Made by a program: the position numbers and the translations under genes. Of a stretch of DNA of 64,000 nucleotides, positions 4,728 through 45,678 are shown piece after piece. The first letter of the stretch is position 1. Every line of letters starts with the position of its first letter. Origin of the DNA: Eledone cirrhosa (Eukaryota); contig OZ024748.1 in the NCBI GenBank assembly GCA_964016885.1, positions 10,540,001-10,604,000 of the forward strand, written 5' to 3'. The notes below the pieces were generated by a model. That model saw only the letters and a program-made list of their open reading frames with translations, was not told the DNA's origin and ran no database searches.

Positions 4728-4859
4728 GTATGGGACTCTGTAAAGGGCGCCAACCCAGACCTAAAATTATGGGAAATTGGTAAAATCATTGGACAGATGT
4801 GGCGGGAATTGTCCGAAAAAGAGAAACAGGAGTATATGGATGAATACGAAGCAGAGAAG
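4728..4859 (+). CDS. SMARCE1: SMARCE1 HMG-box exon
   Basis: 132-nt exon bounded by ttcag|GTATGG and GAGAAG|gtaatg; encodes [17 protein letters not shown]. Confidence 0.95.
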
Positions 4860-12400: not shown

Positions 12401-15400
12401 AGCCTAGTGTATTGTTTTTATCAAAGGTTGATACATGGAAGACATCAGTCCAAAGGTTGAACTTCATAATTCCTGTTTTTATTATACAAAATTTTGATTT
12501 TATATTTGTCCTGAAGCTGTGTAGTTGGCTGGAATAAGATTTTATGTAATTGATACTTATTCTGTTTAATATGTGGAAGCTTGTGGCATAGTGGCTAGGA
12601 TGTTGGACAATGTCATCGGTTCAATTACTGGACCAGTTCACATTACTCCAGTACACTCAACTGAAAATGATTACCAGTAATAACTAAGGGTTAATCCTGA
12701 AAAGATTGGCATCCTGTCCAGGGGGAGCCTTGTACTCTGTAAATGGTGATGAAATTGGCCTGAGGAGCCTCCAGGCGTGGGACAGACTTTAAGTAACTTA
12801 ACATATCTATATCAAATAAAAGAGTTGTCACTCTTGTAATATATATTGATATGTTCCAAGTTGTCTTTGTGGTATCATAACTCACCACTTTGTGTGTGCT
12901 GTATAAATTACTGAATCTTTTCCTCAGTACTTCTGTCTTATAGGCACTGGAGAGTGGTAATAAATTTGGTGATGTAGGTTCAATATCTACCATTGATATT
13001 CATCTGTGATCATTAGAGCATCAGTATTTAGTCTAGTTCTTTATGTTCTAAGTTTATATCTCATCACGGTCAACTTTGTCTTTCATAAATATAATAACAA
13101 TGTAAAGTTGTGGAGTGGCAGATTCCTTTGTCTTTCATAAATATAGTTACAGTGTAAAGTAGTATAGTGGCAGATTCAATAGAGCTCCAAATGGGGGTAC
13201 TTCAGAGTGTGTTTGGGCTGGGGGGTACTTCAGAGTGTGTTTGGGCTGGGGGGTACTTCAGAGTGTGTTTGGGCTGGTTATTATGTTGGTTCAAATCCTA
13301 CCTCCTTTCATCGGATAGATGGTGATCCAACATGACTGAAGCGCGTATCATTGAATCTCTTGAGAAACCTCTTGTGATATACACACTAAAGAATACCACT
13401 GATTACATTTGGAGGGGAAAATCAATCAAAACCTAGTGTAGATATCAATATTGAAACCAAATTTCAACCTCTAAAGAAATATTCTTTAATAAATGTCTCA
13501 TAGTATGGAAGTAAGATCTATATAACTCTCCACTGAAAGTACTTCTATCAAAATAGATTAAATCTTTTGGTTATAGGGAGTGGATTGATAGGTGTAAATT
13601 ATAACTTACTTTTGTATTTTGTGCAATAGAATAGAAGTTACAGATTAACTTAAAGTTGTTTGAGCTAGCTCTCTCCTGCTTCCCACAAAGGTTTTCTTTC
13701 AATGTGATCTCATTGAGCTGCCAGCCATATTATATATATGCATACATGTATACACAAAACAGTATATAAAAGATAAATTAAGATAGATTTAATATCTGTT
13801 TCACTTCTGTTTATACATCTTACTGAAAATTTTAAGAAATGTAAAAAAAGGTTATTTCTTTGTACTAAAAGAATAACAATGTTTTTTCCCCATTTGTTCA
13901 AATTTTCAGATAGGTTTATAAGCTGTAGTTACATATATTCATATATTCATGTATTGTTCTTTTGCATTGGTGTAGTGTATTCTTGGTATTCTCGCAGAAT
14001 ATATTGGAATTATTAAATCTATGATAGTTTTTGTAGAATTTCGATTGTCATTTCTGATTTGTGTGTGTGTGTGCCGTATGTACTTATGTATTAGTTGCAC
14101 TGTAAAAGTACAGTGTTGAAAAACCAACAAGCAACTTATCTGCTGAACTTACAGAATCTCAGTTCAAAATGTATGGTACATTGTAGATATATGTAAAATG
14201 GAGGTGTGTCTTATACATGAATATATATGATGTATGTATATTATATATCATCAGCTGGTATATATATATATATATATACACACATATATATATATATATA
14301 CATACACATAGTTCTCTATACAAGTGTGTATTTCCATGTATCTGAATATCTATTATATTTTAAGTTGCTATCAGGACGTTCCCAGTTTTTGTGACTTCGT
14401 AATTTCATAATTTAATTTGACTTCAATAAAATAAAATTATACTTGAAATATATAATATATATAAAAAAAAAAGACACCAGTCAGTTTGTAGTGGATCGTG
14501 TATTACGATAAGTGCCAAACCATTGCAGATCCAGTACAACGAAGCAATGAAAGCCTACCACAACTCTCCCGGTTACCAGGCCTGGATTGCTGCAAAGGGA
14601 AGACTCAAAAATATTGGTATGTATTTGAGAGACATGAAATGGGGGATGATGATAGCTTTTGTTCTTAAGGCAAAAAAATTCTTTTAATTCTTCATAGTTT
14701 GTTCTTGAATCTTAAAGGAGGAATATGGAAAGATATATCTTCCTGCTGGTATATAGGACACATATTTATTTTATTTTGAGATTATGGTATATATATTCTT
14801 GAGAATTCTTGGTAGAAAGAATCACCAAAATCTGTAACTTGAACTCTTTATCTATTTTTTTTTAATCATTTGTTCTATTTATTTTTTATTCTCATTAATT
14901 TCTCAACACTTAAATTTCATAATTTTCTTATAACAGCTAAATATTTGGGGCAATACACATAATGCTTATGTTGTTATCATTCTTACTATCAGTATTAGGT
15001 GGTGAGTTAGCAGAACTGTTAGAGCAGTGAACAAAATGCTTTGCATTATATATTTTCGTACTTCCTTCCGCTCTAAGTTCAAATTCCACCAAGGTCAACT
15101 TTGTCTTTCCTCCTACCGAGGTCATTAAAATATGTATCAGTTACATACTTGGATCAATCTAATTGGGCATTCCTCTTTAAAATTTCTGGCTTTGTGCCTA
15201 TTTTAGAAACAATTATTAATAAATACTATCATCAAATTCCTATTTGAAATTATTAGAAAATTAGTGAATGGATCCATTTGAACTTGGTAAGCAGTTGAAA
15301 TTGTGGAGATGGGGATGCTCTTTAGATTTAACTCTTAACATCCTGTAATGATTTAGAACAAAAACTTTATCTAAAAAAAGGGGATTTAATAATTCAAACA

Positions 15401-17634
15401 TGTATAGAGGAGAGGTCGTTGTGAAAATGTGCAATACTAATTTAATTTTTAATGTGATGCAGTTTCGTATTTTTCGAAAATACCTTGCTAATGCAGTTTT
15501 ATGTGGTACAGGATGTTAAGAGTTAATAATAATAATAATAATAAAGTCATTTAAACATTTTTGAAGAGAAAAACAATCATTGACTTGTAATTCTTCCTCT
15601 CACTAGCTGAAACTGAAGATGAAGAACGAGAAAAACCTCGACAACAGGTAAATTTAGGTTTATAATTAATTCAGTCTTTATTTAGTTAGAAAAACATTTC
15701 ACTCATAAATTGTCTTTATATTTCTACTTACATTTTATTATATATGTATATATATATATATATAAATATATGGAGGTGTGTGTACGTATATGTATATATA
15801 TATACATATACATACACACACATACACACACTGAAAGTGATGAATTGGCAGAATTATCAAGACATCAGACAGAATCCTTTACAGTATTCCTTCTGGGGCT
15901 TTGTAACCTCATGGAGTCAATTTTGCCTATCATCTTTTCTGGAGTCAATAATGTAACTGACAAACACTAAAGCTGACTTCCTTTCTCTCTCTCTTGAAGA
16001 CGTTGGTTATGGTCAAACCTGGAAGGGGATGGCTTGACCAAGTTTAAATGCCCAAGAAATTACATCAGGGCTTGGTGATGATATAATATATACATATATA
16101 TATATATATATGTGTGTATGTATTTTTTTTTTTTTTACTTCATCATTTCCTACTGATGTCTTTAGCTTTCCACTTTCCTAATAACATGACACACACACAC
16201 ATTCTCTTTTTTTTTTTTTTTAATACTACATATAGGTGCCTGTGAAAGCATTATACAGCATGTCCCAAAAGCCATCTAAGTATTTAAAAGTCAAATACCA
16301 TGCATGTTCATTAGGTGACTTTTGGCACACCCTGTATGTATGCACATATATATATATATGTAGTCAGTTCCACAACAAATTAACAAACTATACTTGAGGA
16401 CACGCTTTTGACCGGACAGATTTTCAACCCATGTATAAACGGATATAATCTGGTTTTTTACCAATATATATATATATATATAATGGACAAGATACACAGC
16501 ATTTACAATGGTGCAATACATCTAAGTACACATGCACACACACACACACACACACACATTTTTTTACCTGTTTTATCCAGTGGCATAAAAAAATTGGCAA
16601 GACTTGTTTAGCCTGGATATATATGTTACTTCTTCCTTCAAACATACCACTTTTAGTGGGGTTCAAAAAATTTCAATAGTAGTTTGTCCAATATAATATT
16701 TTCTGGTGAAATGTCTATACAATTTGTGCTTCTTATATATGGCCGTTAAAATTATGTCCGGATTTTCTGGGGCTGCAAACCTCAGCAAAATTGAAGGGAA
16801 ACAGATCTGGTTTCCAAAGTCATATCATATACTGCAGAGTTTCTATTCCTTTCACAACACTCAACTCTCCACACTTTTTTCATAAAGTGTTGTTGCATCA
16901 TTACTGAATCTAAAACTCAATGTCTGTTTTATTATCATTGTTATTATTTTGTTGTTTTTAATTATTTTTGTTGTTGTTTTCTGTTGCTATGGTATCCACT
17001 GGACACAAACAACACCAGTGAGTGGGCAACAGTGAATCTGGGTAGCAATGGGAAGCAGGTTTGGGGCATTAGTGTGAAGTGTGGGGTCTCTGGGATTGAA
17101 CAGGTTGCGCTTGGTGCAACTTTTGCAGACCTGTCCAACCCATGTCAGCATGGAAAAATATAAAATCTATGGGAAATATTTTTTTAATCTATAAAACCAA
17201 AACAATGATGATGATATTAGTTAACCAATGTTTTCTCTTTATATTGTTTTTTTAATTTTTTATTGTTTGTTTATGTCAATTGTATGTCAACCTCCATACT
17301 TGTATATATTGCATATATATATATATATCTGTGTGTGTGTGTCTATAATTCTCAATGTTGTTTATTTATTTAATAAAACTTAACAAACTTCTTCCAGAAC
17401 ACTTTGCCAGACAAAAGTAACTTGAATTCCAGTAAAAACGGTTACGATGGGATAATTGAGAAAGAAGTAGCCGGTAGGGGACCACGGCGAGTAAGAGTAA
17501 GTAAATTTTTGGTATTTAGCTTCATTAGTGACCTGGTGGTTAGGGCAGTGCTGGTGCACTATATATGAGATAGATTCTATTTTAACCTGTTGACTGCCGT
17601 GTATATTTTACGCGGCTACAGTTGCTGTGCTGGG

Positions 17635-17665
<31 letters not shown>

Positions 17666-18726
17666 CATTTATTAACACCACATATGAGGCTCAAAAACTG
17701 TGATTGCGTTGTAAGATGGGTTCGACACAGTCAACTGGCCTGTCCCTCCTCATGACAGAGCAATCCAGTCCCACACTGTACATTTGGTTGGTGTTAGGAA
17801 GGGCATCTAGCTGTAAAATACCCGGCCAAATGTATAGTCCTCACCGAAGAAAGCTACGACATGGCCAGATTTACCTTCCGGCATGGACAACTCGTCTAAC
17901 CCATGCAAGCATGGTAGAATTGCCACTAAACGGAAATGATAATGATCTGAATGATTGACAAACATCACATCAATAAACTAGTAACCCCATCTAGCTTTGA
18001 AGTTATGAACTGTTGGAAACCAGTTCAATATGTTAGGACTATTTATCTCGTCTATGGCACTGAAAAGGTAAAATGTGAAAAATACAAATTGAAATTTGTA
18101 AAAAGTTCATACATAACTGTCAAAGTAGGGAAACAACTAAACTAATAATGAAAACATCACAAACTGCATGTTTCTCATTGGTAACTTTGCTCCATTTATT
18201 GACTCAACAAAGAAATATAAAAAAGAAGTTTCTGTATTTTTAATTATCTATATTTCTACTTTATGCTAAATACCTCTTTGGAATAAAATTTTTTAATTAC
18301 GTGCAAATTGAACCAAAATATTTTTACTTGCTTTAAAATGCACTATGAGTATAGAAATGTTTGAGAACCACTGGGTTAGGGTGTTCAACTCATGATCATA
18401 AAGTAGTGGGTTCAATTCCTAAACCAAGGGGTGCACTTTGTGCTTGAGCAAGACACTTCATTTCATGTAGCTTTTCATGATAGACACCCTTACTCTTAAA
18501 ACACTTGAGAAATCTCTCATAAGATGCAACATCTTAGAAGGCTAGTGTTTGATATTGTCTGATCTTTTGTTTTTAACAGCAATCAAAATCTGATTCACCA
18601 AGGATTAGCATACAACCTGCAGATGATGAAGATGGTAGGTTGAACAAGTCTTTTCTGGTTATATATTTTTATTTATTTTCCAAATGAAGCAGTCTTTTGA
18701 CTGGAATAAAAGAAAAGTACTATGAT

Positions 18727-18759
<33 letters not shown>

Positions 18760-21700
18760 AATATTATATATGTGTGTGTATATATATATGATTTTATTTT
18801 TGTTATTTCAGATTTTGATGATGGTCTTTCTGTGAAGCATATTGCCCATGCTCGTTATTTGAGGAACCACCGTCTCATTAATGAAATATTCAGTGAAACT
18901 ATGGTTCCTGATGTTCGCACAGTTATTATGTCTACTCGGATGAGTGTCCTGCGGAAGCAAGTCTCTTCTTTAACCAACCATCAGGTAGAATATGCATGAC
19001 TGAATTTTTCTCTATCCGCTATTTTCTTCCCTTTTCTACTCCTGCCTCCTCCTTTTTTTATCTTTTTCTACTTCTCCTTCCTCTTCCTTTTTCTACCTCC
19101 TTCTACTTATCCCCCCTCTTACTTCCACTACTTCAGTCTTCATTTTCATGTGTATGTTTTAGAAAAAACTGGAATCTGAGTTGAAGTTAATTGAAGACAG
19201 ACATGAAGCAAAGAAGAGGAAATTCATTGAGAGCAGTGAATCTTTTCATGAAGATTTAAAAAAAGTGAGTTTATTTTTTTATTTATTTATTTTACTCTGT
19301 TTACTTGGGGGTAGACAATTTTCACATCAAATTTTTTGGGTAAAATGAAGGTGCATCCTAAACGCCAGAAAATCTGGTGGTTATTTAACTTTTTCTGATA
19401 TTCTTACTTCTATTGTAGCTGTGTGAAAGTAAACCACAGATCACAGATGAAGTGTTTGCTAACATGCTGGCCAAGGTGAAAGAAGAACTGCGTCAACGAC
19501 ATGCACAGTTTCTGCAACAACAGCAGCAGGCCAAGACTGTTGCAGCCTTACATCAGCAACTGCCACTGTCATCATCACCACAGCAACCTCCGTCAACGCC
19601 CACGCCCCCTGTCGGTTCCAGTATGTCACCTGCCACACCTGGTAGCTCGTCAGCAGCGACACCCGGCCCACCAGATTTAGACATGCAGGAGAGCGAGGCT
19701 TCCACCAAATCTAAAGAAGACGAAAAATGCGACACCATCGAAAAAATGGAAATTGAAGAATCCAAGAGCAATCTGGTAATTCTAGCAGTGAGGAAGATAT
19801 CTTGTGATCGTTGTGATGGTCGTTATGTGTTGAAGTGGTGGTGGTTGTTATGTATGTTGTATGTGTTGATGGTGCTCTTGATTGTTATATGTTGGTGTTG
19901 AAGTGCTAGTTGTTGTGTTGGTGGTGGTTTTATTGATGTTTGAATGAGATGGTTGTCATATGTTCTGGAAGGATGAAAATGACTGAATGAGAGGAGTAAT
20001 GGAAATAAATATGGAAGGAAATAGAGGAAGAGAAAGACAGAAAAAGACATGGCTGGGGATAATGAAAGCCAAGGGGTTTGAGAGTGGAGTAGAGGATAGG
20101 GCAAAATGGAGATGTTTATCTAGGATCCTGCAAAGCTATCTCCTGTTTTAGCAGTGAAAATGGCCTTAAAATACGTTGTTGTTGTTGTTGTTATTGTGGC
20201 CAGTGTCAGTAGGGTGATATGGCTCTGTGGTTTTAGGTGTTCCATCCTATTGCATGTCACCTTGGACAAGTGTCTTCTACAACTTCAGACTTGCCAATGC
20301 CTTCTGAATAGATTTGGTAAATGGAAATTGTACTGAAGTACTTCATATCTCTGAGTGTGTTTGTGTGTATAAAGGAATGTATTGAGTGAGATGGTGTCAG
20401 CCAACATGTCTAGGAGGACAATAGCCTCAATTAAATACTGACTTCATCTGAAAGACCTGTCCAACCCATGCCTGCATGGACAGCAGATGTAAAATGATAT
20501 AGTGTGTGAATGTCAGTATTAATGTCAAGACTGTTGGTTTGTTTGTTTGGCTCCCAATATAACAATCTTTGTCAGGCATGTCACTTTGGTGAACCATCCC
20601 TTGTGTTTGTAGGACTCTACATCGAGTGACAAACCTGAACCCTCTGATTTGAAAGAGGAGGAAGAAGAGGAAGAGGACGAAGAAGAATTAGATGAAACAC
20701 CAGAGACACCAGCAGCACCTGCAGCAGTGTTGAAGACGGAAGAACCTGATACACTCCCAGAAGCAAAGAGCCCAGTTTCAACGACAGAGACTACTGTCAC
20801 TACTACAGCTACTGCTAGTACTACTTCCACCACCACTACTCCTGCTACTAGTACTACTACTACTACTGTTACACCTCCTGCGGTATGTATTAACCCTTTC
20901 TTGATATCTCTAATAAAACACACCGCCTACCATTTTCAAATAATTTTGAAAATATTGCAGGAGTTTAGTATAACTTTCACATTCTTAATCTGCTTTTTAG
21001 AACATGATCTTACATAAAATTATGATGAAAGGTTTTTAAATAAATATAAATGCTTTAACCCTTTCATTACCATATTTCTAATGAAAGACACTGCCTATGA
21101 TTTTCAAATCATTTTGAAAATCAAGAATTTGGAGGGATCTAGTAATATAACTTTACGTTTTTAAGTTCAAATCTTGCCGAAGGTTGTATCTATAGAATAG
21201 GTACTAGTCAAGTATTGGCATAAAAGATATTGATGATCTTTGCTTTCATCCTTATGTGGTCGATAGAATAAAGTGCCAGTAATGCACTGGGGTCAATTCA
21301 ATCGACTTTCCCTTCTCCCCAAATTGTTGGCCTTGTGCCTTAATTTGAAACCATTATTATTATTATTTTTTGTTATTTCCCAGCCACCAATGACTGAAGA
21401 AATGTCTTCCTCAAGCACGCCAGCTCCAGATAGTTCTTCTACACCTGCTCCTGATAAAACTGAAACTCCTTCCCAGCTACCTCAAATCACTGAAGTATGT
21501 CATCACAAATTAACAATTTTCTATAATTTCATATTGAATCTGTTGTTGGTTGGGCTGATTGACACCTCAACATTGTGTGGGTCTGTGTGTTCTATGAGAA
21601 CAAATATATTATTTTACTCCTAATGCGCCTGACAACTGTAAAATAATAGCAATTGAGGCATATGGCTTAGTGGTTAGAGCATTGACCTTGCAATCGACAG

Positions 21701-24700
21701 GCTGTGAGTTCAATTCTCAGACCGGGTGATGTGATATGTTGTTTCCTTGAGCAAGACACTTTATTTCACATTGCTCCAGTTTACTCAGCTGTAGAAATGA
21801 TGAGATGATAGGGACTGGGGTCCATATCATTCCACTGCAAAGTGGTCGTGGAGGTGCCACAGCAAAAAAGCACCCAACACTCACTGTAAATGAGGTTGGT
21901 GTTAGGAAGGGCATCCAGCTGTAGAAATCAAGCCAGAATCAGTTCCCGTCCCACCCTTGCAAGCAGGGAAAAACGGACATAAAATGATGATGAGGGGAAT
22001 ATGCTGATGTTATCACAGAATGTGGCATCCAAAGGCCTCATACCTCCAGTGAGTCACGAGAATGGCTGAAAGTAATTTGAAAATCATGTGATCAGTTTGA
22101 AGACTGATTTTGAGTGAGCCCCACACAGCCCTCATTGAAGCCACCCAGATTTCTTTATTTGGGGCTATCTGAAGGATAGGGTGTATTTCAATAAACCCAT
22201 GTCCATCATTGAACTAAAGGAAAACACCAGTGGGGAAATCAAAGCCATTCCTAGATCTCTTTGTAGAGACGTTATGCAAAACTTCACCATGCACCTCAAA
22301 AAATGCGTTGATTCAAATGGGGGTCAGTTAGAACGTGCTGTAACTGGACAGAAACATCACAAGACTGGATTTTTTATGTGTTTGTTGTTGATAAATATAT
22401 TCAGAGTTTTTATCAAAAAATGAAATTCATTTTTTTGAAGATGGGGCCAGTTTTTTTCTTTCTTTTAGTCACTCTGTATAAATATATATATATATATCAA
22501 CTAGAAATTGCTTGACATATATATATATATCTAAAATAAACATATGAAACAATCACAGGGGATAATCTGTAAAAGTGTATAAGCACACACAGCTATGTGG
22601 GTAACTAATTAAAGTTTAACTAGAATTTCAAAAATAGATACCTTATAAATTGATTAATCTTCCTTGTATATATTTCATTAAAGAAATATATTTCACTAAT
22701 TAATCGATTGGTAAACGACAGTAGCTAAATCCTGGATTTTCAACAAGGAAGAAGACTTAACTATCTGTGTTTACACATCAAATTCAAATCTGTGACTAAC
22801 TAATAGCACGTGTTGCATTTAATACAAATACACACATCGCACCAGCTTCGTCCCAGTGGGGTGAATAGGGTTATCGACAACTAGGAATAGCAGTCAAGTC
22901 CTTTCAACTGAGTTAGCTCTACAATTAAGGAGCCGTATTTATCATCATCATCATCATCAACGTTTAACGTCCGTGTTCCACGCTTGCATGGGTTTGGACG
23001 GGGGTAGTCCCACTTGAGGCAAGAGTGATTGTCTTGCTCGCATAGGACTGTCTGGCAGGTTTTCTACAGTTGGATGCCCTTCCTAACACCAACCACATTT
23101 ACAGTGTGGGTCTGGGAGGTTTTTACCGTGTTGCCTACACGGCCACATTACAGCGTGGACTGTGTGTTTTTTTGTCGTGACACCTACACGATCTCATTTG
23201 TTTCGGCCTGGATGGCGCGGCACCAACATAACTTTACATAGAACGGGGTGGTGTGGATGGGGTGGGGGTGGCGGCGGGAGGGGTGTATTTTGTTAGAGAT
23301 GCCTACTGGCAAGGCGGGTCTTCTCTGTTACTGAGTACCGCCAAAGGTCACGGTCCAGTGACATTGTCTTGGAGAGGTGTAAGTGTGTGAGGTCGGAGTT
23401 TATCAGCTCATCCCATGTTTTTCTAGGTCTGCCTATTCCGTGGCTACCGTCTATCTTTATTGCCCTGCACTTTGTAATACAGCTATCGACTTTCATGCGC
23501 ATCACGTGTCCATACCAACGCAGCCTTCTCTCGAGTAAACAACATCTGATCCCTCTTATCTCTAATTTTTTCCTTAGTTCGTTTATGCTTTGCCGTTCAC
23601 GTATATTACTGTTACACATCCAGCGGAGCATGCAAGCTTCGTTCCTCTCTAGTCTGCGTATATCCTCTGCACACAATGCCCAGGTCTCACTACCATGCAA
23701 CATTGCTGTTCGTATGCAGGCATCGTACAACCTGCCTTTCATTTTTAGGGAGAACCCTTTAGCAGCTAATAGTGGTATAAGCTCTCTGAACTTTTTCCAA
23801 CCAGTTCTGACTCTAGCTACAGTACTTTCAGAGCACCCTCCCCCACTGCTGATTTTATCGCCCAGGTAACGGAAGCTGTCCACTATTTCTATAAAACCCT
23901 CTGCGCAATTGAAAGAGCTAGTATTTTGTGGGCACTTGCTGCTACTTATTGCACCAGAACACCGGCCACATGTAAAGTCTATGTTCTTAGTTAGCTTACC
24001 TGTGATCCCACTACATCTTTTATGCACCCATACTTTGCATTTAGGACATAAGATGGAGTTTCTACCTACGCCTTTCCTACATACCGAGCACGACCATTTC
24101 CCAGAAGGGACCGCCGCCTTGTTTTCTTTCCTACAAACTAGAACTTTGGTCTTAGCCAGGTTAATTTTAAGTCCTTTTGACTCTAGGCCGTGCTTCCATG
24201 TTTGGAATTTCTTCTCTAGCTCGGCCATTGATTCCGCTATGAGTGTCAGGTCGTCTGCGTATAGGAGTTCCCATGGGCAGCCTGTCTTGAACTCCTCTGT
24301 TATAGCCTGAAGGGCAATAATAAATAGTAGGGGGCTGAGAACAGAGCCCTGATGGACGCCAACTTTTACGCTAAACTCTTCACTATATTCGTTGTTAATT
24401 CTAACCTTGCTGACTGTTTCTTTATACATGGCTTGTATAGCCCTCACAAGCCATTCGTCAACGCCTAGTTTTCTAAGAGCCCACCAGATAATGGAGCGGG
24501 GGACTCTGTCGAAGGCTTTCTCCAGGTCGACAAAAGCTAAGTAGAGGGGTTTACCTTTAGCTAGGTACTTCTCCTGTAGTTGTCGTACTATGAAAAGAGC
24601 GTCTGTGGTGCTTTTGCCTGACACAAACCCGAACTGCATTTCATCTAGATCAATTCTCTCTCTGATTAGTTGCGCTATTACTTTTTCCGTGACCTTCATG

Positions 24701-26503
24701 ACCTGGTCGATTAATTTAATGCCTCTATAGTTACTCCTATCTAGGGCGTCTCCTTTACCCTTATAACAGTTAACGATGATGCTGCTATGCCAGTCCTTCG
24801 GAACAACCCCATTCTGTACGACTTGGTTAACTATGCGGGTGACCATGGTGTGTCCCACCGTGCCAGATGCCTTCAGCATCTCAGCAACTATTTCCGAAGG
24901 CCCAGCCGCCTTACCAGTCTTCATATCCTTGATTGCCTTACTTATTATACTCCCCTCGACTAACACTGCTGGTCCCTCTATCGGGTCGATATGGGGGAGA
25001 CTGTCTTTCTCCCATTTATTCTCCTCATTTAGTAGCCTTTCATAGTGACACTTCCAAGCTACCTTCTTATCAGTGTCGGTGATTTATATATATCCAAAAT
25101 CTAAATTAAATTAAGGGTGTCATGTCAGAGAGACATGCGCCATATCCACTGTAAAATATGCTCCAAGATTCCAATGAATAGATCCGAACATATATCAACT
25201 AGAAATTGATTGACATATATATGTATCTAAAATAAACATATGAAACAATCATGGGAGCACATTTTACAGTGGATATGGCGCATGTCTTTCTGACATGACA
25301 CCCTTAATTTAATTTAAATTTTGGATATATATATATATACTGTATTTTCCGGCCCCCTCCTCGAGCACGTACCCTAATTTTGAAAAAAAAATAATGAACA
25401 ACTATCGGCCTCCAGGACGGATAGTAGATTTTTGAGACTTATTTTAGGAAAAAAGTAGCCTCTTCAACACCAGGCAATACGGTATATATATGCTTCATCT
25501 CTGCTGTGCTGAGTTCAAATTTGCTTCCTATTGCTGAAAAAGCAGTGATGTGCTCTGCCATGAGTTGTGTCCAGCAGATAGTATCACCAATGGAAGCATT
25601 TTTTTCTTTGTTCCAATTTGACAACCTGTTCGTTTTTATCTTTTTTAAACGTGCTGTTCTCTACATGGTTTGATTTTTCAGGAGAAAGCAGTCGTAGCAG
25701 AACCAGTTGTGGAGGCCCCAGTTGCTGAGAAGGAAGTTGTCCCGGAAGAGAAACCAACTGAGTCTACAGAAGTAGCTGTTGCTTCTGATAGCAGTCCTCC
25801 TCCTGTTGCTTCTACTGTTGTTGCTGCAACTACTACTACTACTACAACTACTTCTACTTCTTCTCCTAATGCTACTAATGCTACTTCTGTTGCCACCCCT
25901 CCAGTAGAGACCACTACTTCTGAAACTACAGCTGCTACTACTACAGCCAGTACTACTACTACAGCCACTACTACTACTACAGCCACTACTGCTGCTACCA
26001 CTGCTACTGCCAGTGGAGACAACAATGTGGAGATGACAGTTGCCAGTGAGAAGACACCTACACCACCACCACCACCACCACCACCCCCTCCGCAACCATC
26101 ATCATCACCACCACCACCACCACCTCCTGCAGTCCTTCCAGCTCCTTCCACTAGTACAACTGCTATCACATCTACCACTACTACTCCAACTGTTGCTGCT
26201 GCTGCTGCTGCTACTACTACTACTTCTACTACTACTGCTGTTGCTGCTACCACCACTACTACTACTGCCGCTGCCACTGCCGCCACCACTTCTTCAACCA
26301 CCACTACTGCCACTGCCGCCACTACTGCTGTTACCACTACCACCACCACCACCACTACTGCCACTGCCACCACAACTGACACCCCTGCTGTTCCTCCACC
26401 TCTTCCTACTGCTTCTTCTGAAGCTCCAGAAACCAAACCTGATACTCCAGCCACCACTACAGGTAGGTCCTTAGTCTTGCACTCATAACCTTCTCATGCT
26501 CTC

Positions 26504-26534
<31 letters not shown>

Positions 26535-27274
26535 CATCGCTGCCACTACAAACAGTTCCTTAGTCTTGCACACACACACTGTTGACAGCCTCTACTTTTA
26601 ACTATTTCTCTATAAACTCGTGTATTACAGATAGGTTGTTATTTGCAAACACACACACACTGTTGATGGCCTCTATTACATCTATTTCTCTATAAACTCA
26701 CTCATAGACAGGTTGTTAGTTACAAACATACTCACACACACTGTTGGTGGTCTCTGCTATCTCTAACTATTTCTCTATAAACTCACCCTTTATAGATAGG
26801 TCAATAAAATAAAGTAGCGGTAATACACGGGTTGATTTAATTAACTTTCCCCTCTCCCCAAATTGTTGTCCTTGTGCCTAAATCAGAAACAGTTGAGTCT
26901 CTACCTTTAACTATCTCTCTATAAACCTATCCATTACAGATAGGTTGATAGTTTCAAACACACACACCTCACTGGTAGCCTCTCTCTCTAGCCACTACAG
27001 ATAAGTTCTTAGTCTTGCACTCAAACTTCTTGGAGTCTCTCTCTCTCTCATATCCACCCACCACAGAGAGGTTCTTAGTCATGCAGCCATAACATTCTGG
27101 GAGTCTCTTTTTCTCACCCCTCCATTCTTCCTTTGAGCTCTCTCTCTACATGTAGGTTGCTTAATAGCACACATGCATATCCTGTTGAGTATCTATCTAT
27201 CTAGCTAGCTAGATACAACTTGTTAGCCTCTCTCTCTCACACACACAGTTGAATATCAGTTTCTCTCTCACTCA

Positions 27275-27315
<41 letters not shown>

Positions 27316-30300
27316 TCAGTTGAGGGTCGATCTCTCTCACACACACACTCAGTTGAGAGTCAGTCTCTCTCTCTCTCTCTCAACTTATCCAACACATTGA
27401 AACTAACCTTTCTCTCAATAACAAAAATGTATGGTTTTCTTATATAACTGAGAAGTTGAATTGAAGACAAACTGGGTTGATTTTTTTTTAAAATAATTGG
27501 CTGTGTGTAAAATATTGTCTGGCTTTCTATTTAAAATAATTAAACCTTGGCTGGAAAAGATGTTGAGCCAGATGTTGGAAATGGTGCGGAAATGTTTTTG
27601 TTACTTAGTATATGTCAAATGGAGAAGGTAGATTGGACTGAACTATGGCCGGTAGAGCAAGATGTGCAGAGAAGAAGTTTTGAGAACTGAATAGTGTGTT
27701 AGTGAGAAATGCCATGATGGCTGATGAATGTGGAGCAGCAGAGAAGGATGAAAAGAAACAGAAAGAAGAATGATTTTGAGGATGATTGTAGTATTACTTA
27801 GAGGAAGAGAAAGAATGAAGTGTTGAGGATGAGAGAAATAAAGCCAGTGATGAATGTTGTGGATAGAAAATGGTATGAAATGCTTAAGTTGTGTGTTAAG
27901 GAAGGATGGAAATAGAACCAGTGATGAATGTTGTGAAAAGAAATGGAATGAGATGCTTAGTTTGTGTGTTAAGGAAGGATGAAAGTGACAAGGCTAAGAT
28001 GAGTGATGAAAATAAACATGGAAGGATGTAGAGACAGGTTTGGAGAGACCAAGAAAAACATTACTAAAGATGATGGAGGAGGAAATGAAAGCCAGGAGGT
28101 TGTTGAAGGGGAATGTAGAGGATAGGGCAAAATGGAGAAGCCTGTCATGGGTCTTGCAAGGCTAACCCCTACTTTAGCAGGGAAAACATCCCTAAAGCAC
28201 TTATTTTATGTTCCACTCCATTTAAGGTAATGTAATATTAAATCATTTCTTGTTCAAAGTTTGACTTTGACACAACTAAATTGTTGTTTACTTTCTTTGT
28301 TATTACAGCTACCAGGCAATTCAAAAATATTCATTCTTTTGAAATGAATTTTTTTCTTAATTTTTTATGAAATATTTTCAAGATTTAACTCATTAATTTC
28401 TTTGTAACCATTTCAATTTATTATTAGTATTTTAGTTAACTAACTTCACTAAACTAAAATAATATTCACCAATACATGGTAAACTTAGAAAAATTGTTTT
28501 TTATGCAACTAAGTTCAGCACATCACAATCTCTAGTATACACTCTCTCTCATAAACACATTACCTTTCTCTCTCCCTGATTACCTCTCAATCAACCTCTC
28601 TATCTCTATTTCTAAATATCTATCTATATATTTATCTACCTATCTATCTCCCACTACTACAATGGTATTGACTACACTAAACTAGAGCAGGCTACTGCTA
28701 CCCCCACCTCACCCAATGCGCTATGTTGTGGTGTACCACTTCCTCTCTTTCCACTTTTCTTATTCCTGCTATCACTGTCTCACTCTTGTAAACACTGTTA
28801 CTACTAAATACTCTACACCCAGTCATTCCTCTCCAAAATATTGGAACATCTACCCATGTCCCCCTCTCCCCTTTTTTGTTTTAAATGTGAGATCCTTCAA
28901 AGACTATGGACATTGCCTCTTTCTCCCCATCATCGGAATTAAATATTAAAAAGGTTGATAAAATAAAATAAAATAAAAAATATTTAAATAAAAATATTCA
29001 AAATATTGAAGTCCTTAACTTAGGAAGAAAAAAATGTTTTGTTCATTTATTTAAGGAGATGAAGTTTTGGGATTTCGGATTTTTAATTCTTGTATGTTTG
29101 TCTTGCACTATTTTTTGCTGCTTTCAGACTTTCAGATAATAAGAAAGACAAAATTTACCTCAACATTAAATTTCTTTGTTTTTTTTGTTTTTTTCTCTGT
29201 ATTTCTCTCTCTTTCTATCTATCTATCTTCTATAATACCCCTTCCCCCCAGAAAAAAAAAAGCGGAAGAATTCTTCAAGAAATCCACCATCATCAGACAG
29301 TTCCTCAATTCAACACCTTGTCAAAATCTTTTACTGTTCCTAAAAATTGTCGTTAATTGTCTAATAAAAAGACAAGCTGAGCTTTCAGCCTTCTCTCATT
29401 CTTCATTCTCATTTCAGAGCTTGACAAAGTTAAGCAGCAGACTAATCTTTCAGCGTTCACCATGAAACTGCAGAGAAGAAATTTTCGAGCCATGATGTTC
29501 CTGCATTACTCGAAAGGGAACAGTGCAGCTGACTGTCATGAAATTTTGTATCGATTATTTCAGGATTTAAGTCCCTCTTACAGTACAGTAAAATTCTGGT
29601 TTGGAGAATTTAGACGTGGTAAAGAAGATCTGGATGATGACCAAAGATCTAGCCGCCCTAACGCTTCAATACTCTCTGAAAATATTGAAGTGATAGAGGC
29701 GATGATGCATAATGATAAAAGAGTAACGCCTAAAGAAATAGAAGGCACCTTAAGCATCGGATCAGGAAATGTCAAATGGATTCTGCAGAACCATTTGCGT
29801 TTGAAACAGCACAGCTGCTGTTGGATTCCACAAACTCTAACCGAAACGCAAAAGCAGGCGCGAGTGGAGTGGTGTCAATACATGCTGAAAAAATTTGAAA
29901 ACGGAGGTTCTCCTAAGGTCTGGGACATTGTCGTGGAAGACCAAATTTGGCTCTATCAATATGAACCAGAGACGAAACGGCAAGCTTCTGTTTATGTCTT
30001 TCCTGATGAGGACCCGCCTTTAAAAGTGAAACGGCCGAGAAGCATCGGCAAAACCATGATGGCAACTTACTTCCAAAGAAGTGGCTACTTGGTAACCACA
30101 CCTCCGACAGACAGGGAAATAGTCAGTGCACAGTGGTATGTGACCAAGTGTTTACCACAGTTGTTTGAAGCGATCAAAACGAAGCGCCCAGACTCAGGCC
30201 TCCGCGGCATTCTCCTGCACCACGATGACACTCGCATCAATACTGCTGCAGCGACACTCGACTTCCTGGCCGAAAACCACGTACAGATAATCTCTCACCC

Positions 30301-31247
30301 GGGCTCTAGCCCGGATTTGTCTCCATGCGATTATTTTCTCTTCTCCAAAGTCAAAGAAAAGCTGAGGGGCATCCGATTTGAGAGCCCTGACGAGGCTGTA
30401 CAGGCGCTGGTCAACCAGATGTCCCAACTGTCCAACTTTGAATGGACTCAGTGTTTTGCAAATTGGTTTAAAAGAATGAAAACTTGTATAGATTGTGAGG
30501 GTGACTACTTTGAAAAAACCTGAGTACTTACTGTACTGTAAATTGTATTTTTTTTTTATTTTATTTTTTTTTTTTTTTGGAGAAACCAACCCAAAAAAAA
30601 AATAAAACCGACCAACCAACAAACAAACAATACAGACAATAAAACCAAAAACACAAAACAGTTTTTTGTTGTAAGGTGTTGAGGACAGGAACTCTCTGAA
30701 TGTTAATTGTACATAGCCCACTATTATTATTATTATTATAGCCTATCATTTTCTATTACCTTAGGCAAATTCATAATATTTATCTATCTTCACCCACATT
30801 TTTTTTTCCATTAATATATAATAATAATAACTAACAACATAGTCGTTTAACCCTTTTCTCTCCCACCACCCTCCCCACCCTCCCTTCACCTTGCCTTTGA
30901 TTAAACAAAAACAAAATATTCATACAAAAACAAAATATATATATATAATATACGAAAGCTACTATATATATTAGAAGTTTTCTCTCTTCCTCGTGAGTTA
31001 GCCGTTTTTCATTAGGGGGTGTCTGTCAACTGACCGACCCTTGAAAATTTACTTTCAACTTGTATTGCTGTTATCTTCTCTTTCAGAATCAGAGGCAGCA
31101 ACAGAGAAAGACACAGCAACCACTGTGTCTTCAAATAATGTCTTGCAACAAGCCGAACAGTGGAACGGTGTGACGGACAGCACTCAGGCTACTTCAGAGG
31201 GAACAGCTGATAGTGAGGAGGAGGAGGAGGAGAAAAGCAGCAAATAA
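4728..31247 (+). CDS. SMARCE1: SWI/SNF (BAF) subunit SMARCE1/BAF57, 5'-partial, multi-exon, canonical isoform
   Basis: Phase-consistent GT-AG exons: 4728-4859 ([47 protein letters not shown] box), 14529-14616 ([25 protein letters not shown]), 15607-15647, 18580-18634 (SIQPADDED), 18812-18984 ([32 protein letters not shown] domain), 19163-19264 ([21 protein letters not shown], coiled coil), 19419-19775, 20613-20882, 21384-21494, 25682-26462 and 31087-31247 (stop). The sum is 2271 nt, divisible by 3. Motifs match vertebrate SMARCE1 as I recall them. N-terminal exons were not found in the window. Confidence 0.95.
5326..5541. mobile_element. piggyBac-type MITE (TTAA target duplication, CCC...GGG ends)
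   Basis: ttaa|cccttttgatacc ... ggtaacaaaaggg|ttaa. Relatives at ~2157-2337 and ~40905-41260. Confidence 0.7.
13192..13277. repeat. Minisatellite, 28-bp unit x3
   Basis: gggggtacttcagagtgtgtttgggctg repeated. Confidence 0.9.
15328..15526. mobile_element. TTAA-flanked MITE with a perfect 16-bp TIR
   Basis: ttaa|ctcttaacatcctgta ... tacaggatgttaagag|ttaa. Relative at ~5840-6055. Confidence 0.75.
17398..17490 (+). CDS. SMARCE1: Candidate in-frame SMARCE1 cassette exon (31 aa; 33 aa if the donor after 17496 is used)
   Basis: cttccag|AAC...CGA|gtaaga/gtaagt. Open frame [31 protein letters not shown]; phase 0-0, matching the flanking exons. Confidence 0.6.
21656..21993 (+). mobile_element. tRNA-derived SINE with an RTE-derived 3' tail
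   Basis: A/B-box head (tggcttagtggttagagc...gagttcaattc). Body and tail are shared with the RTE LINE 3' UTR (gttggtgttaggaagggcatccagctgtagaaa...atgatgatga). Confidence 0.75.
22000..22478 (+). mobile_element. Decayed Tc1/mariner (rosa/maT-like) 3' fragment with terminal repeat end
   Basis: Reads (W)[23 protein letters not shown]...[12 protein letters not shown] with stops; ends ...cactctg-TA. This is a different family from the 29462 ORF. Confidence 0.7.
22941..25082 (-). mobile_element. 5'-truncated RTE-like non-LTR retrotransposon (LINE) in a SMARCE1 intron
   Basis: 557-aa ORF at 23293-24966 with RT motifs ([39 protein letters not shown]) and a C-terminal [11 protein letters not shown]...GRPRKTW. 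Has a 3' UTR and a (GAT)n tail at ~22941-22960; no endonuclease domain is present. Confidence 0.92.
25094..25324. mobile_element. MITE-like element with ~71-bp inverted arms, flanked by (TA)n
   Basis: Arms 25094-25164 and 25254-25324 are reverse complements with 3 mismatches. Confidence 0.7.
25682..26462 (+). CDS. SMARCE1: SMARCE1 Thr/Ala/Pro low-complexity exon
   Basis: ttttcag|GAGAAA...ACAG|gtaggt, 781 nt, phase 0 to phase 1; lies within ORF 25670-26488. Confidence 0.85.
29418..30523 (+). CDS. Mariner (DD34D) transposase-derived ORF; candidate alternative terminal exon of SMARCE1
   Basis: 353-aa ORF at 29462-30523 with an HTH region ([12 protein letters not shown]...SRP) and the motifs WIPQTL (WVPHEL-like), [14 protein letters not shown] and [13 protein letters not shown]; 34 residues separate the 2nd and 3rd Asp. 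The acceptor (ttctctcattcttcattctcatttcag|) lies 44 nt upstream of the ATG and is in frame with the phase-1 donor at 26462. Confidence 0.85.
31087..31247 (+). CDS. SMARCE1: SMARCE1 canonical terminal coding exon (acidic tail)
   Basis: tctctttcag|AA TCA GAG..., phase 1, ends [10 protein letters not shown]. Followed by an AT-rich 3' UTR containing AATAAA motifs. Confidence 0.85.
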
Positions 31248-34200
31248 TATTAAATTATTATTTTTTATTTTTTTGTCGGAATTCAAATCAAATCAAATCA
31301 AAGAAAGAAAGGAAAAATAACACCAACAACAACAGCAACAACAAAATCTTAGTTCTACTACTTCATAATAATAGAGAGATTATTCAAAATTTTTTTTTTA
31401 ATTCAGTATGATCCATCATAAGGATAATAATAATTATTAAAAATTTCAAAATTTTCAAAATTTTAAATTTAAGAAAGAAAAAAAAAAGACGAAAACCATA
31501 AACAAACTTTTATCCTTATTCCCAAATTTCTTGGTTATTTCAGCTTCAAGTTGATAAAAAAGATCTCCCAAAAATATCCTCCTCTTCTTTTTTTATTTTT
31601 TTTATTATTATTTTGGTAGTGTTTTTTTTTTTTTTTGTTTTGTTTTGTATATTTTTTTAAATCTGCAACTTCCAAATGATTTTGGTTGTTTTTCTGTTTA
31701 ATAATAATTGCATGACTATGATTTCAGATGTAGCTCCACTACTACCACCACCACCACCACTACCCAGCTAGCTAGTTATTGTTCCTACTACTACTTGTAC
31801 ATTACCACGGCCATTACTGCCACCTAGCTACTTCTATTTCTACTACTACTACTACTACATTATCATTAGTACCATTATCACTACCATCACCACTACAGCA
31901 TGAACCATTAAATAAAGACTCTTACTTACTGACTAGAAAAGTAGTATATATGTTATATACATATATATTTAACTGGCACATGCATGTATGTATGTATACA
32001 CTATGTATACATACAGACATATGTACATATATGAATACAGACACACGCATACATACATATAGGCACACACGGGCACACAAACAGTGAAATAGTTCTGCAT
32101 GCCATTTAAACACCCTAATAAATAAGGTACCTGAAATTACTTGTATGTATGCATCATCATCACCATCACCTCATCATTATCATCATCTCTAGTACTACTA
32201 AGGACCTTGGTGATTTTTTTTTTTTTTTCCCCTTCTTTAGAGAAATAGGGCAGCTAACTAACTACATCCACTAGTAATAATGATCCTCCTAACTTACGAA
32301 TTACCTTGAAGATGATATTATTTTATTTGAGGGGCTATGTTGTTTTAATATTTCTGAAAGTTCCTGTACTCAATTCCTCTATTATTATTATTATTATTAT
32401 TATAAGAACCATTTCATTGTATTTTTTCAAAAAACACCTGATATATATTTCTTATTTCCTATTGAAATAATTATTATTTTTTATTATTATTATTATGTTA
32501 TGTTACCACTTCACCTGTAATAATAATAATAATTGCTATCAAAATCTGCCTAATTGTATAATTATATTTATCCATATATGTAACACACTTTTGCAGTAGA
32601 TTTCTTTTCTTTTTTTTTTTTTTCTTTTTTTTTCTTCCGGATGTCTTGCCTATTATTCTGTCTGTCATTCCTACCTACAGCTGGAGGAGTTCAAATATTG
32701 AGATATGGAAACGGTGTTGGTATCATTGTTGCTGTGTTGATACTACAGCTACTATTACTACTACCACTAATACTTCAACTACAAACTATGCCTTTTTTCT
32801 TTCTCTCTCTCTCGCTCTCCAAATAAACAATGTCTCTTTAAGCTACACACTGCCCTGGAAAGAAAACCAATTATTATTATTATTATCATGTGAGAGTGGT
32901 CTGTTGGCAGAATTGTTAGAGCGTTGGAAGAAATGCTTTAAGGTATTTATTTGTTCCCGCTCTTAACGTTTCTAGGTTCAAATCCCACCAAGGATTGCTG
33001 GCCTTGAGCCTAAAATTAGAAGCAATTATTATTATATGTTCTGTGTTACTATGTATGATGCTCAAAGATCCTTTATGCACTTTAATATTGACTTAGCCTG
33101 CCAGTAATATTGGAACACTTAAAATAATAATGATAATAAAATCAAGTTTTATTATTGTTATTATTGTTTATTAATTACTTAATCGATCAAACAGTAAAAT
33201 TCCTGTACGCAGGAAAAATTTTAAATAGCCAAACAAAAAAATGATAATTTTAAAATTCTACACACGTTTCCCAGCCTATATATAAACAAACTTGAATAAA
33301 TATATATATATATATAATTACATAAACAACACAATATGATTATTTCATTACCGAAGGTTTGAAGAAGCTAGATGATTCTTGCAAGAAACATCCAGTTCGT
33401 TCGTCAGACTAAATAATTATTGTGTTGTTTATGTAATTAAATAGCTCTGTACAATAAATAGAGCACTCTTTTTTCCTTTACCTTTTCTACAGAAATATTT
33501 AACATATATATATTAGTGGTGGGGAAAACAGAAAGAAAGGTGACAAACTGGCAGTCAATAAGGCATCAGAATGCCTTGTGGTATTCATTCCAGTTCTCTG
33601 CCCTCAGTCCAAATTTCACCAAGGCCAACTATGCCTTCTCAGGGTTCGAATAAACAAAAGTACCAGTTGATTTTTCTTCTCCCTATCTATCTATCGCTCT
33701 CTGGAAGAATATCGGCTGTGATCAAGCCTGGAGAGGGATAAGCACCGCCAGGTTAAAAATGCTCAAGGCACGCCTCTGCTCCCATGTCACAGCTTTTTCC
33801 CATTAGGAGTTATGAGATCAAAAACAAAGGAGGAAGGGGAAAAAGACCCTCAAAACAGCAGAGTAAATGAAAGACAAATTGAAAATTTTTGCCACCATTT
33901 TTTACACTTAGTTGAGAGTACATAAAATATGCAAATACATTTGAAAAAAGTGAAGCTGAACTAGGTTTTGGTTTAAGAAGATATTGCAACACCTTTGTTT
34001 TTAATTATTATTATTATTATTATTATTATTAGAGCAGTGGATTGGATGAAGCATTAGAGCAGGCATGGGCAACCTTTTTCAAGCATTGGGCTCATAATAA
34101 GGCAGACCTCACTACTAAAAAATTCAAGGCAGGCAATTTTGAAATTAGGCATGCCATTCAGAAAGCCAAACAGGCTGCAGTTTGCCCATGACTGCATTAG

Positions 34201-45643: not shown

Positions 45644-45678
<35 letters not shown>

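Follow-up and report, generated by a model that had tools for sequence, protein, structure and literature searches.

Can a transposon lodged in an intron become an alternative end of a core chromatin-remodelling subunit? The question is raised by a 64,000-nucleotide stretch of the genome of the octopod Eledone cirrhosa (GenBank assembly GCA_964016885.1, contig OZ024748.1, positions 10,540,001 to 10,604,000 of the forward strand; G000:C8:10540001-10604000 in our numbering), hereafter the window, in which the last intron of SMARCE1, the gene for one of the core subunits in the SWI/SNF (BAF) complex, carries an intact mariner transposase open reading frame (ORF) in the sense orientation. An earlier note, made from the sequence of the window, proposed a domesticated SMARCE1-mariner fusion formed through an alternative terminal exon. 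The splice junction, the single copy of the exon in the 3.0-Gb genome searched, the pattern of codon differences and a fused gene model in Argonauta all favour this proposal, and we consider it very probable that the fusion is a real, conserved isoform of SMARCE1; the entry of the fusion protein into BAF and its function there would follow from the domains that it keeps.

Two last exons for one donor

The mariner ORF extends from the ATG at 29462 to the TGA at 30521-30523 and encodes 353 amino acids (aa), and the exon that contains it is directly preceded by a polypyrimidine tract and an AG at 29416-29417. The donor after 26462 is in phase 1, as is the canonical last exon at 31087-31247. A joint between 26462 and 29418 leaves the reading frame uninterrupted up to the transposase stop codon, yielding 1104 residues visible in the window and about 1200 in the full-length protein, in which a 15-residue leader precedes the 353-aa transposase; when 26462 is joined to 31087, the SMARCE1 frame closes at 31247. 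All these elements, and the AATAAA signals at 30601 and 30638, are present as the earlier note had described them; the first signal lies inside an A-run, and both are candidates for the fusion isoform. The visible fusion coding sequence amounts to 3315 nt including the stop rather than the 3216 nt given before, the 99-nt gap matching exactly the length of exon 17398-17496, which was apparently overlooked. The isoform indeed keeps the HMG box, the NHRLI domain and the coiled coil, but the idea that it swaps the acidic tail was overstated: the fusion trades only the 53-aa last exon and retains the linker of about 470 aa, rich in Thr, Pro, Ala, Ser and Glu (28% Thr).

Among the 24 sequencing runs listed, none is recorded as RNA, which counts neither for nor against the fusion; four of them (X21, X10, X1 and X18) were aligned to positions 26380-31330. 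In run X21, from the same organism, two GT..AG junctions depart from one donor, the predicted 26462 to 29418 and the canonical 26462 to 31087; transcripts choose between the mariner and the canonical acceptor. The X21 contig, 1187 letters long, contains 26 letters of the upstream SMARCE1 exon followed by 29415-30537 without differences, and a processed copy does not account for it, because the joined form is absent from the assembly, where the mariner exon is single-copy. In run X10, from another organism and another study, a contig matches 29415-30529 without gaps and has unaligned letters in front, 15 of them if the contig is read on its own strand, as many as on its canonical-exon contig; this would fit the same branch point. 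Run X1 has an approximate canonical junction to 31087, and for X18 no contig was displayed over the mariner exon, the uncovered part being uninformative. The contig depths over the mariner and the canonical exon (13.8 and 92.9 in X21, 49.5 and 141.4 in X10, 10.8 and 399.7 in X1) cannot rank isoforms and so do not establish the fusion as a 'minor isoform'. The features concerned are as follows.

25682..26462, plus strand: penultimate SMARCE1 exon, rich in Thr, Pro and Ala, with the phase-1 donor for both last exons (X21 junctions)
29293..29319, strand not applicable: weak inverted repeat of 27 nt, left arm (right arm at 30673-30699), not above chance, possibly a decayed terminal inverted repeat (TIR)
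29418..29461, plus strand: in-frame coding leader from the acceptor to the old transposase ATG, like the leaders in the Argonauta fusion and in a paralogue on contig C12 (X10 gap-free from 29415)
29418..30523, plus strand: coding part of the mariner-derived alternative last exon, with a paired helix-turn-helix (HTH), an AT-hook linker and an RNase H-like DD34D domain
29474..29623, plus strand: HTH_48, Mos1-type first HTH (Pfam, E 1.8e-9)
29939..29941, plus strand: first catalytic Asp, D160 counted from the ATG; motif context TGDE changed to VEDQ
30224..30226, plus strand: second catalytic Asp, D255; family-motif residues N256, A257 and H260 altered
30329..30331, plus strand: third catalytic Asp, D290, 34 residues past D255
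30601..30643, plus strand: two candidate poly(A) signals of the fusion isoform, predicted from sequence
31087..31247, plus strand: canonical SMARCE1 last exon, 53 aa, with an acidic end (X21 junction; approximate X1 junction)

The X21 contig bears on the alternative that selection maintains a stand-alone 353-aa domesticated transposase, started at ATG 29462 from its own promoter or an internal start, the fusion being a by-product. All orthologues retain the transposase ATG, as does the C12 paralogue, whose apparent host part comprises 5 codons only, and the Octopus bimaculoides annotation has a separate 353-aa gene; however, the contig that covers the ORF does not begin within the intron but in the SMARCE1 exon upstream of it, and the leader 5' of the ATG has stayed in frame and resembles those of Argonauta and the C12 paralogue. 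We regard this alternative as distinctly unlikely.

Copy number, orthologues and selection

In the DNA search of the genome, the mariner exon found the locus itself and a 115-nt scrap (both of the 2 matches scored). In the protein search, the best 115 of 7954 candidates comprised the exon itself, a copy on contig C12 with 47% identity and 113 sequences with at most 33%; with a free relative as the query, the same two loci ranked first (51% and 45%) among the best 115 of 10132 candidates, the 113 others reaching at most 41%. The mariner exon is single-copy, rather than one of the many near-identical, TIR-flanked copies expected of a recent insertion. The scrap (L002:1501-1615; G000:C13:17118674-17118788), which is 100% identical to positions 29786-29900 of the window, sits in a long TA microsatellite by an assembly gap and could be a templated insertion or an assembly artefact. 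Other mariner families with about 30% identity (for example L008, L009, L013, L014 and L021) are numerous in the genome, some of them free of stops, and are unrelated to the captured exon.

The inverted repeat around the ORF matches at 22 of its 27 positions, and 12 of 283 random window pairs score as well; its motif has those two matches only in the whole genome, with up to one mismatch. As a demonstrable TIR it is ruled out by these controls and by the uniqueness of the motif, so that the earlier statement that there are no TIRs stands in practice. Clear TIRs, a TA duplication and near-identical copies, the hallmarks of an active mariner, were not found here, and a metagenome scan yielded no close free element with TIRs above 39% identity among the 80 sequences kept of 484. 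As to whether the ancestral transposon supplied the splice acceptor, the SMARCE1 mariner exon and the C12 paralogue have acceptor and leader in common, but DNA from a close free element did not turn up, the best match being at 39%.

Among the 150 best hits in a search of 1.84 billion representative proteins, P0003 alone exceeded 52% identity, at 93%, and in a second protein search, likewise, 1 of 34 hits did so. The 90% cluster of P0003 has three members, XP_014783185.1, a 353-aa protein and GAB1609329.1. The first of these, from O. bimaculoides, is a 353-aa ORF named SETMAR-like, 93% identical to the window protein (a difference of 6.5%), and lies on the same 57,421,550-base contig as the SMARCE1 gene of that species, synteny being at the level of the contig only. 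The last, from Argonauta hians, is a 1243-aa protein that represents the entire fusion, namely the SMARCE1 N-terminus, HMG box, NHRLI domain, coiled coil, Thr/Pro linker, leader and mariner part, the latter starting at residue 891 with 89.5% identity, so that HMG_box and HTH_48 occur in one chain; the leader before the mariner part resembles that of the window. This 'hypothetical protein' is the only form in which the fusion stands in GenBank. We assume that it comes from the A. hians annotation of PMC12682272, which is described there as pooling ab initio, RNA-seq and homology evidence. Presence at the orthologous locus, to which the earlier note attached weight, is indirectly favoured by the O. 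bimaculoides contig and the Argonauta model. No fused longer protein was found among 2785 candidates with the mariner query, a weak negative given that the Argonauta fusion surfaced later as a cluster member, and no decapodiform orthologue with 51-93% identity was seen among 2513 candidates, which is weak evidence of absence as well; in the search of 1.84 billion representatives, 50% clusters would hide such proteins.

From a total of 156 difference rows, 40 went into the selection estimate; they fall within 29648-29995, a stretch of 116 codons, and 39 are common to X1 and X10. Synonymous changes number 27 and nonsynonymous ones 13, with 29 at third codon positions, which gives a ratio of nonsynonymous to synonymous rates (omega) of about 0.10 (binomial p 5e-10), a rough value in that rows beyond the 40 could hold private changes in the same interval; it is far below the value near 1 that would have spoken against domestication. 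In agreement with it, X1 differs from the window at 101 of 911 nt and X10 at 102 of 1115 nt, both without gaps, while the O. bimaculoides protein differs by 6.5%. Judged from these comparisons, purifying selection acts along the entire protein sequence that the mariner exon encodes. The best explanation appears to be a capture that predates the split between Argonauta and Octopus, for which the fossil minimum is about 29 million years (PMC12682272); this minimum would therefore be a floor for the age of the capture.

Two of the competing explanations meet this evidence directly. An intact ORF with DD34D might point to a mariner that inserted recently or still moves and whose splicing is accidental, but the single copy, the lack of a clear TIR, the orthologues in two other named octopods and the purifying selection effectively refute such an origin. 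Competition of two last exons for one donor, in turn, is what one would expect if the isoform were mainly regulatory, a splice sink or a dominant-negative form that sets the level of ordinary SMARCE1, with no targeting role for the mariner protein; for a sink, however, an acceptor together with a poly(A) site would do, and there is no need of 353 codons evolving at omega of about 0.1; we find this role improbable.

A related exon and the gene's surroundings

The copy on contig C12 (L007:1492-2577; G000:C12:35188527-35189612, minus strand) is an intact 348-aa mariner ORF, also single-copy, with a poly-T/AG acceptor in the same phase (phase 1) and a similar leader. In a tree of 46 rows, it is the sister of four SMARCE1-exon sequences (support 100/99), and these five together are the sister group of three free-type transposases (99/97). 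The C12 copy and the SMARCE1 exon have 5 derived states in common, of which R120C and H124Q occur in 0 of 29 relatives; this suggests either that the two still had a history in common once mobility was lost or that their common parent was unusual. The C12 copy has lost D160, D255 and both AT-hook arginines, and its GC content at third codon positions is 23% compared with 47% in the SMARCE1 exon. No orthologue of it was found among 231 proteins compared, and exact look-up placed neither the window ORF nor the C12 ORF in the protein collection.

About 10 kb upstream of the C12 copy lies an exon that ends with an ATG, four codons and a phase-1 donor, like the first coding exon of eIF1A, and the eIF1A gene itself lies downstream. 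The two eIF1A-type first coding exons (L036:8972-9049 and L044:429-444, both on the minus strand), 22.6 kb apart, thus flank the C12 mariner exon; a pattern over both, built afterwards, has 4 matches genome-wide (control 1), two of which are these exons. The upstream exon, perhaps duplicated or serving as an alternative first exon, may drive the C12 copy. A location of the copy inside the first coding intron of eIF1A was considered and dropped because the canonical first exon, of the MPKNK type, is found downstream of the copy. A 331-aa Lys/Asn-rich ORF with a phase-1 acceptor (L038:198-1193, minus strand), some 12 kb upstream of the eIF1A-like exon, has no Pfam match and was not linked to the C12 exon. 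A dispersed repeat of about 125 bp (L128:2713-2837; 39 other matches, 75-91% identical, among the best 40) ends just upstream of the polypyrimidine tract of the C12 copy.

In the window, 11 SMARCE1 exons were rebuilt between 4728 and 26462, all with AG/GT ends; together with the preceding HMG exon (L003:4910-4982), which lies before the window, they contain the HMG box, the NHRLI domain and the kinesin-like coiled coil (KLCC). The ten exons upstream of the penultimate one are listed here.

4728..4859, plus strand: C-terminal part of the HMG box; rebuilt exon, peptide in O. bimaculoides and Argonauta SMARCE1
14529..14616, plus strand: end of the HMG box; rebuilt exon, homology
15607..15647, plus strand: rebuilt exon, homology
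17398..17496, plus strand: 99-nt exon; peptide in O. bimaculoides SMARCE1 (P0001) and in the Argonauta fusion (P0153)
18580..18634, plus strand: rebuilt exon, homology
18812..18984, plus strand: exon with the NHRLI motif; rebuilt exon, homology
19163..19264, plus strand: coiled-coil (KLCC) exon; homology to P0153 and P0002
19419..19775, plus strand: end of the coiled coil and start of the low-complexity linker; 92% to O. bimaculoides XP_014783170.1
20613..20882, plus strand: linker exon, acidic and Thr-rich; partial homology
21384..21494, plus strand: linker exon; partial homology

The SMARCE1 core is 97% identical to that of Argonauta and the next exon 81%, and a more distant SMARCE1 of 711 aa (P0002) has the acidic tail at its end. 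The linker encoded at 25682-26462 is greatly expanded and rich in Thr and Pro in both the window and Argonauta; the O. bimaculoides SMARCE1 models (548-552 aa) end before this exon and appear truncated. Two further elements occupy SMARCE1 introns: at 23293-25083 (minus strand), the long open reverse-transcriptase frame, with RVT_1 and PHD-like matches, of a retrotransposon without long terminal repeats, and, at 22139-22423 (plus strand), a fragment that by eye resembles the C-terminus of a Tc1-type transposase and has no Pfam match. Beyond SMARCE1, the window includes an RRM-containing gene with a Lys-rich exon at 44104-46513 (minus strand), which looks LARP7-like, and an ankyrin-repeat exon at 59241-59621 (plus strand).

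The mariner module and its possible role

The encoded module has the paired HTH, the RNase H-like domain and the DD34D spacing of a mariner transposase. Of 7 solved sequences matched, the best are Mos1 (E 1.9e-30) and SETMAR, and a structural model (predicted local distance difference test score, pLDDT, 70; predicted template modelling score, pTM, 0.51) has Mos1 and Metnase as its top fold matches, with target-normalised template modelling (TM) scores of 0.82-0.85 to their catalytic domains; a homodimer prediction scored 0.01 and gave no verdict. In a comparison with 29 database relatives, presumed to be mostly free elements, with some perhaps domesticated, 105 columns are at least 80% conserved, of which 20 are altered in the SMARCE1 exon, clustered around the catalytic and linker motifs; the altered residues include T158, G159, E161, N256, A257, H260, P281, Y282, R120 and H124. 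The motifs of active mariners known as TGDE, HDNA..H, WVPH and YSPDL are not all intact. By contrast, R62 and R65, which align with the AT-hook residues R392 and R395 of SETMAR (PMC9062482), are kept in all four orthologous sequences. Identity to the three orthologues is 95-96% in the first HTH (HTH1), 86-88% in the second (HTH2) and, over residues 151-353, 91-95%, so that both halves are under selection.

We favour, with somewhat more than even confidence, the following scheme. An ancient mariner in the last intron of SMARCE1 would have been captured as an alternative terminal exon before the Argonauta/Octopus split. The resulting isoform of about 1200 aa, with the HMG box, NHRLI domain and coiled coil kept, would enter SWI/SNF in place of ordinary SMARCE1; this step seems probable because NHRLI and the coiled coil are both retained and both are among the BAF57 regions resolved in cryo-electron microscopy maps of BAF (PMC9170682). 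On its flexible linker of about 470 aa, the mariner module would form a transposition-dead DNA-binding arm with a paired HTH and AT hooks, the RNase H-like domain being kept as a structural or nucleic-acid-binding part, and would bias some of the BAF complexes in favour of particular sites on DNA, which need not be recognizable as transposon ends today. Whether DNA binding is the main work of the fusion is, judging from the kept HTH and AT hooks, an evenly balanced matter. It seems unlikely that dispersed cognate TIRs are the targets: the tethering to such sequences that the earlier note envisaged is so far unsupported because neither a dispersed family of cognate TIRs nor a sister element turned up, and at least equal conservation of the catalytic-fold half is something that a pure DNA tether does not need.

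The main competing view accepts the same fusion but holds that the RNase H-like domain is what is selected, binding DNA ends, single-stranded DNA or forks, perhaps with residual nuclease activity such as has been reported for Metnase/SETMAR, and coupling BAF to repair or replication restart instead of fixed sequence targets. It draws on the retention of DD34D in all 4 orthologous sequences, on the conservation of residues 151-353 relative to HTH2, on the fit of the model to the Mos1 and Metnase catalytic domains and on a reported repair role of the Metnase DDN triad (PMC4036204). However, T158, G159, E161, N256, A257, H260, P281 and Y282 are altered beside the first two aspartates and in YSPDL, three kept aspartates are unremarkable at about 90% overall identity, and HTH1 is the most conserved part of all; we consider this role rather doubtful, if the strongest of the competitors. 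The DNA-binding arm is, then, favoured over the catalytic-domain role in repair, this over the stand-alone protein, and the latter over the splice sink.

Several observations weigh against the DNA-binding arm or the fusion on which it depends. The mariner junction in X21 comes from one contig of one run, with a short-side anchor of 26 letters (plus 3 ambiguous ones), below the 31-letter bridging mark, although the anchor of the canonical junction is equally long; X21 carries no RNA record and may stem from the assembly's own study, and among the 15 of 25 junction rows displayed, the 26462 to 29418 junction is absent for X1, X10 and X18. NCBI annotates the O. bimaculoides mariner ORF as a separate gene, and in Argonauta the fusion comes from a pipeline's gene model, whose junction peptide differs slightly. 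The intact triad D160, D255, D290 suits a catalytic-domain role equally well, and the catalytic-fold region is more conserved than HTH2. No cognate TIR family or sister element appeared among the best 115 of 10132 candidates, a search in which short or frameshifted fossils could be missed.

Capture of transposases by splicing is not without parallel: in tetrapods, at least 94 such events have been reported, often with an acceptor just before the transposase ORF (bioRxiv 10.1101/2020.05.07.082677). As in KRABINER (ZNF112 and Mlmar1), a mariner in the last host intron was captured via an acceptor just 5' of its ORF, and, as in fusions of this type, parental and fusion transcripts coexist and the host is a regulator of chromatin or transcription; unlike in the tetrapod cases, the host here belongs to the structural subunits of a multi-protein ATP-dependent remodeller, the animal is a mollusc and the whole transposase fold is constrained. 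In SETMAR/Metnase (SET and Hsmar1; PMC9062482), too, a chromatin protein has a full-length mariner transposase for its C-terminal module, and the paired HTH comes with two AT-hook arginines, both kept in the SMARCE1 exon, but the origin of SETMAR is apparently independent, SETMAR-type rows, recognized by length and sequence, lying far from the octopod clade; SETMAR has some 5000 TIR targets and a DDN triad, whereas the SMARCE1 exon has DD34D and no cognate TIR family that we could find. CSB-PGBD3 (ERCC6 exons 1-5 and piggyBac; PMC3459987) also uses an alternative terminal transposase exon in a SWI/SNF-related gene and is co-expressed with its parent, but there piggyBac is joined to N-terminal CSB exons only, whereas here a mariner is joined to all BAF-assembly regions; that binding of CSB-PGBD3 to MER85 did not explain gene regulation (PMC3459987) calls for caution in assuming a TIR-tether mechanism. 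Domesticated Tc1/mariner genes in another invertebrate, CG14478 and CG4570 of Drosophila, have dN/dS near 0.1 as well, but apparently are not described in PMC13548663 as spliced host fusions. The same source states that co-option of the catalytic module jointly with the DNA-binding one 'has not been observed'; in the octopod, the exon is constrained across both halves, any catalysis by it being hypothetical.

In the literature searched, outside of which most subscription papers fall, we found no description of a SMARCE1-transposase or a cephalopod mariner fusion, and SMARCE1 is unmentioned in the main texts, as distinct from the supplements, of PMC10027918, PMC13282606 and the tetrapod survey (bioRxiv 10.1101/2020.05.07.082677). 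With an in-frame transposase exon, a spliced transcript (1 of 4 runs, and the Argonauta model) and conservation with purifying selection, the octopod case is a real and conserved fusion of host and transposase, akin to SETMAR and KRABINER, new in its core-BAF host with all assembly regions kept, in its lineage and in the constraint on the whole length of the transposase. SWI/SNF complexes generally reach specific sites via other factors; a core subunit fused to a DNA-binding and nuclease fold of a transposase would amount to a hard-wired, lineage-specific targeting arm in animals with reorganized genomes and large brains. Tentatively, one might even envisage an octopod-specific class of BAF, in which SMARCE1 carries a transposase arm with sequence-specific binding and a working or half-working DD34D, drawn from a small family of domesticated mariner exons whose C12 member, supplied by the eIF1A-like first exon, could partner or tune it, the choice of the last exon switching targeting by tissue. 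The fusion carries the capture of transposases by splicing beyond tetrapods, to cephalopods, and it illustrates how annotation pipelines may split one fusion into two genes, SMARCE1 and 'SETMAR-like'.

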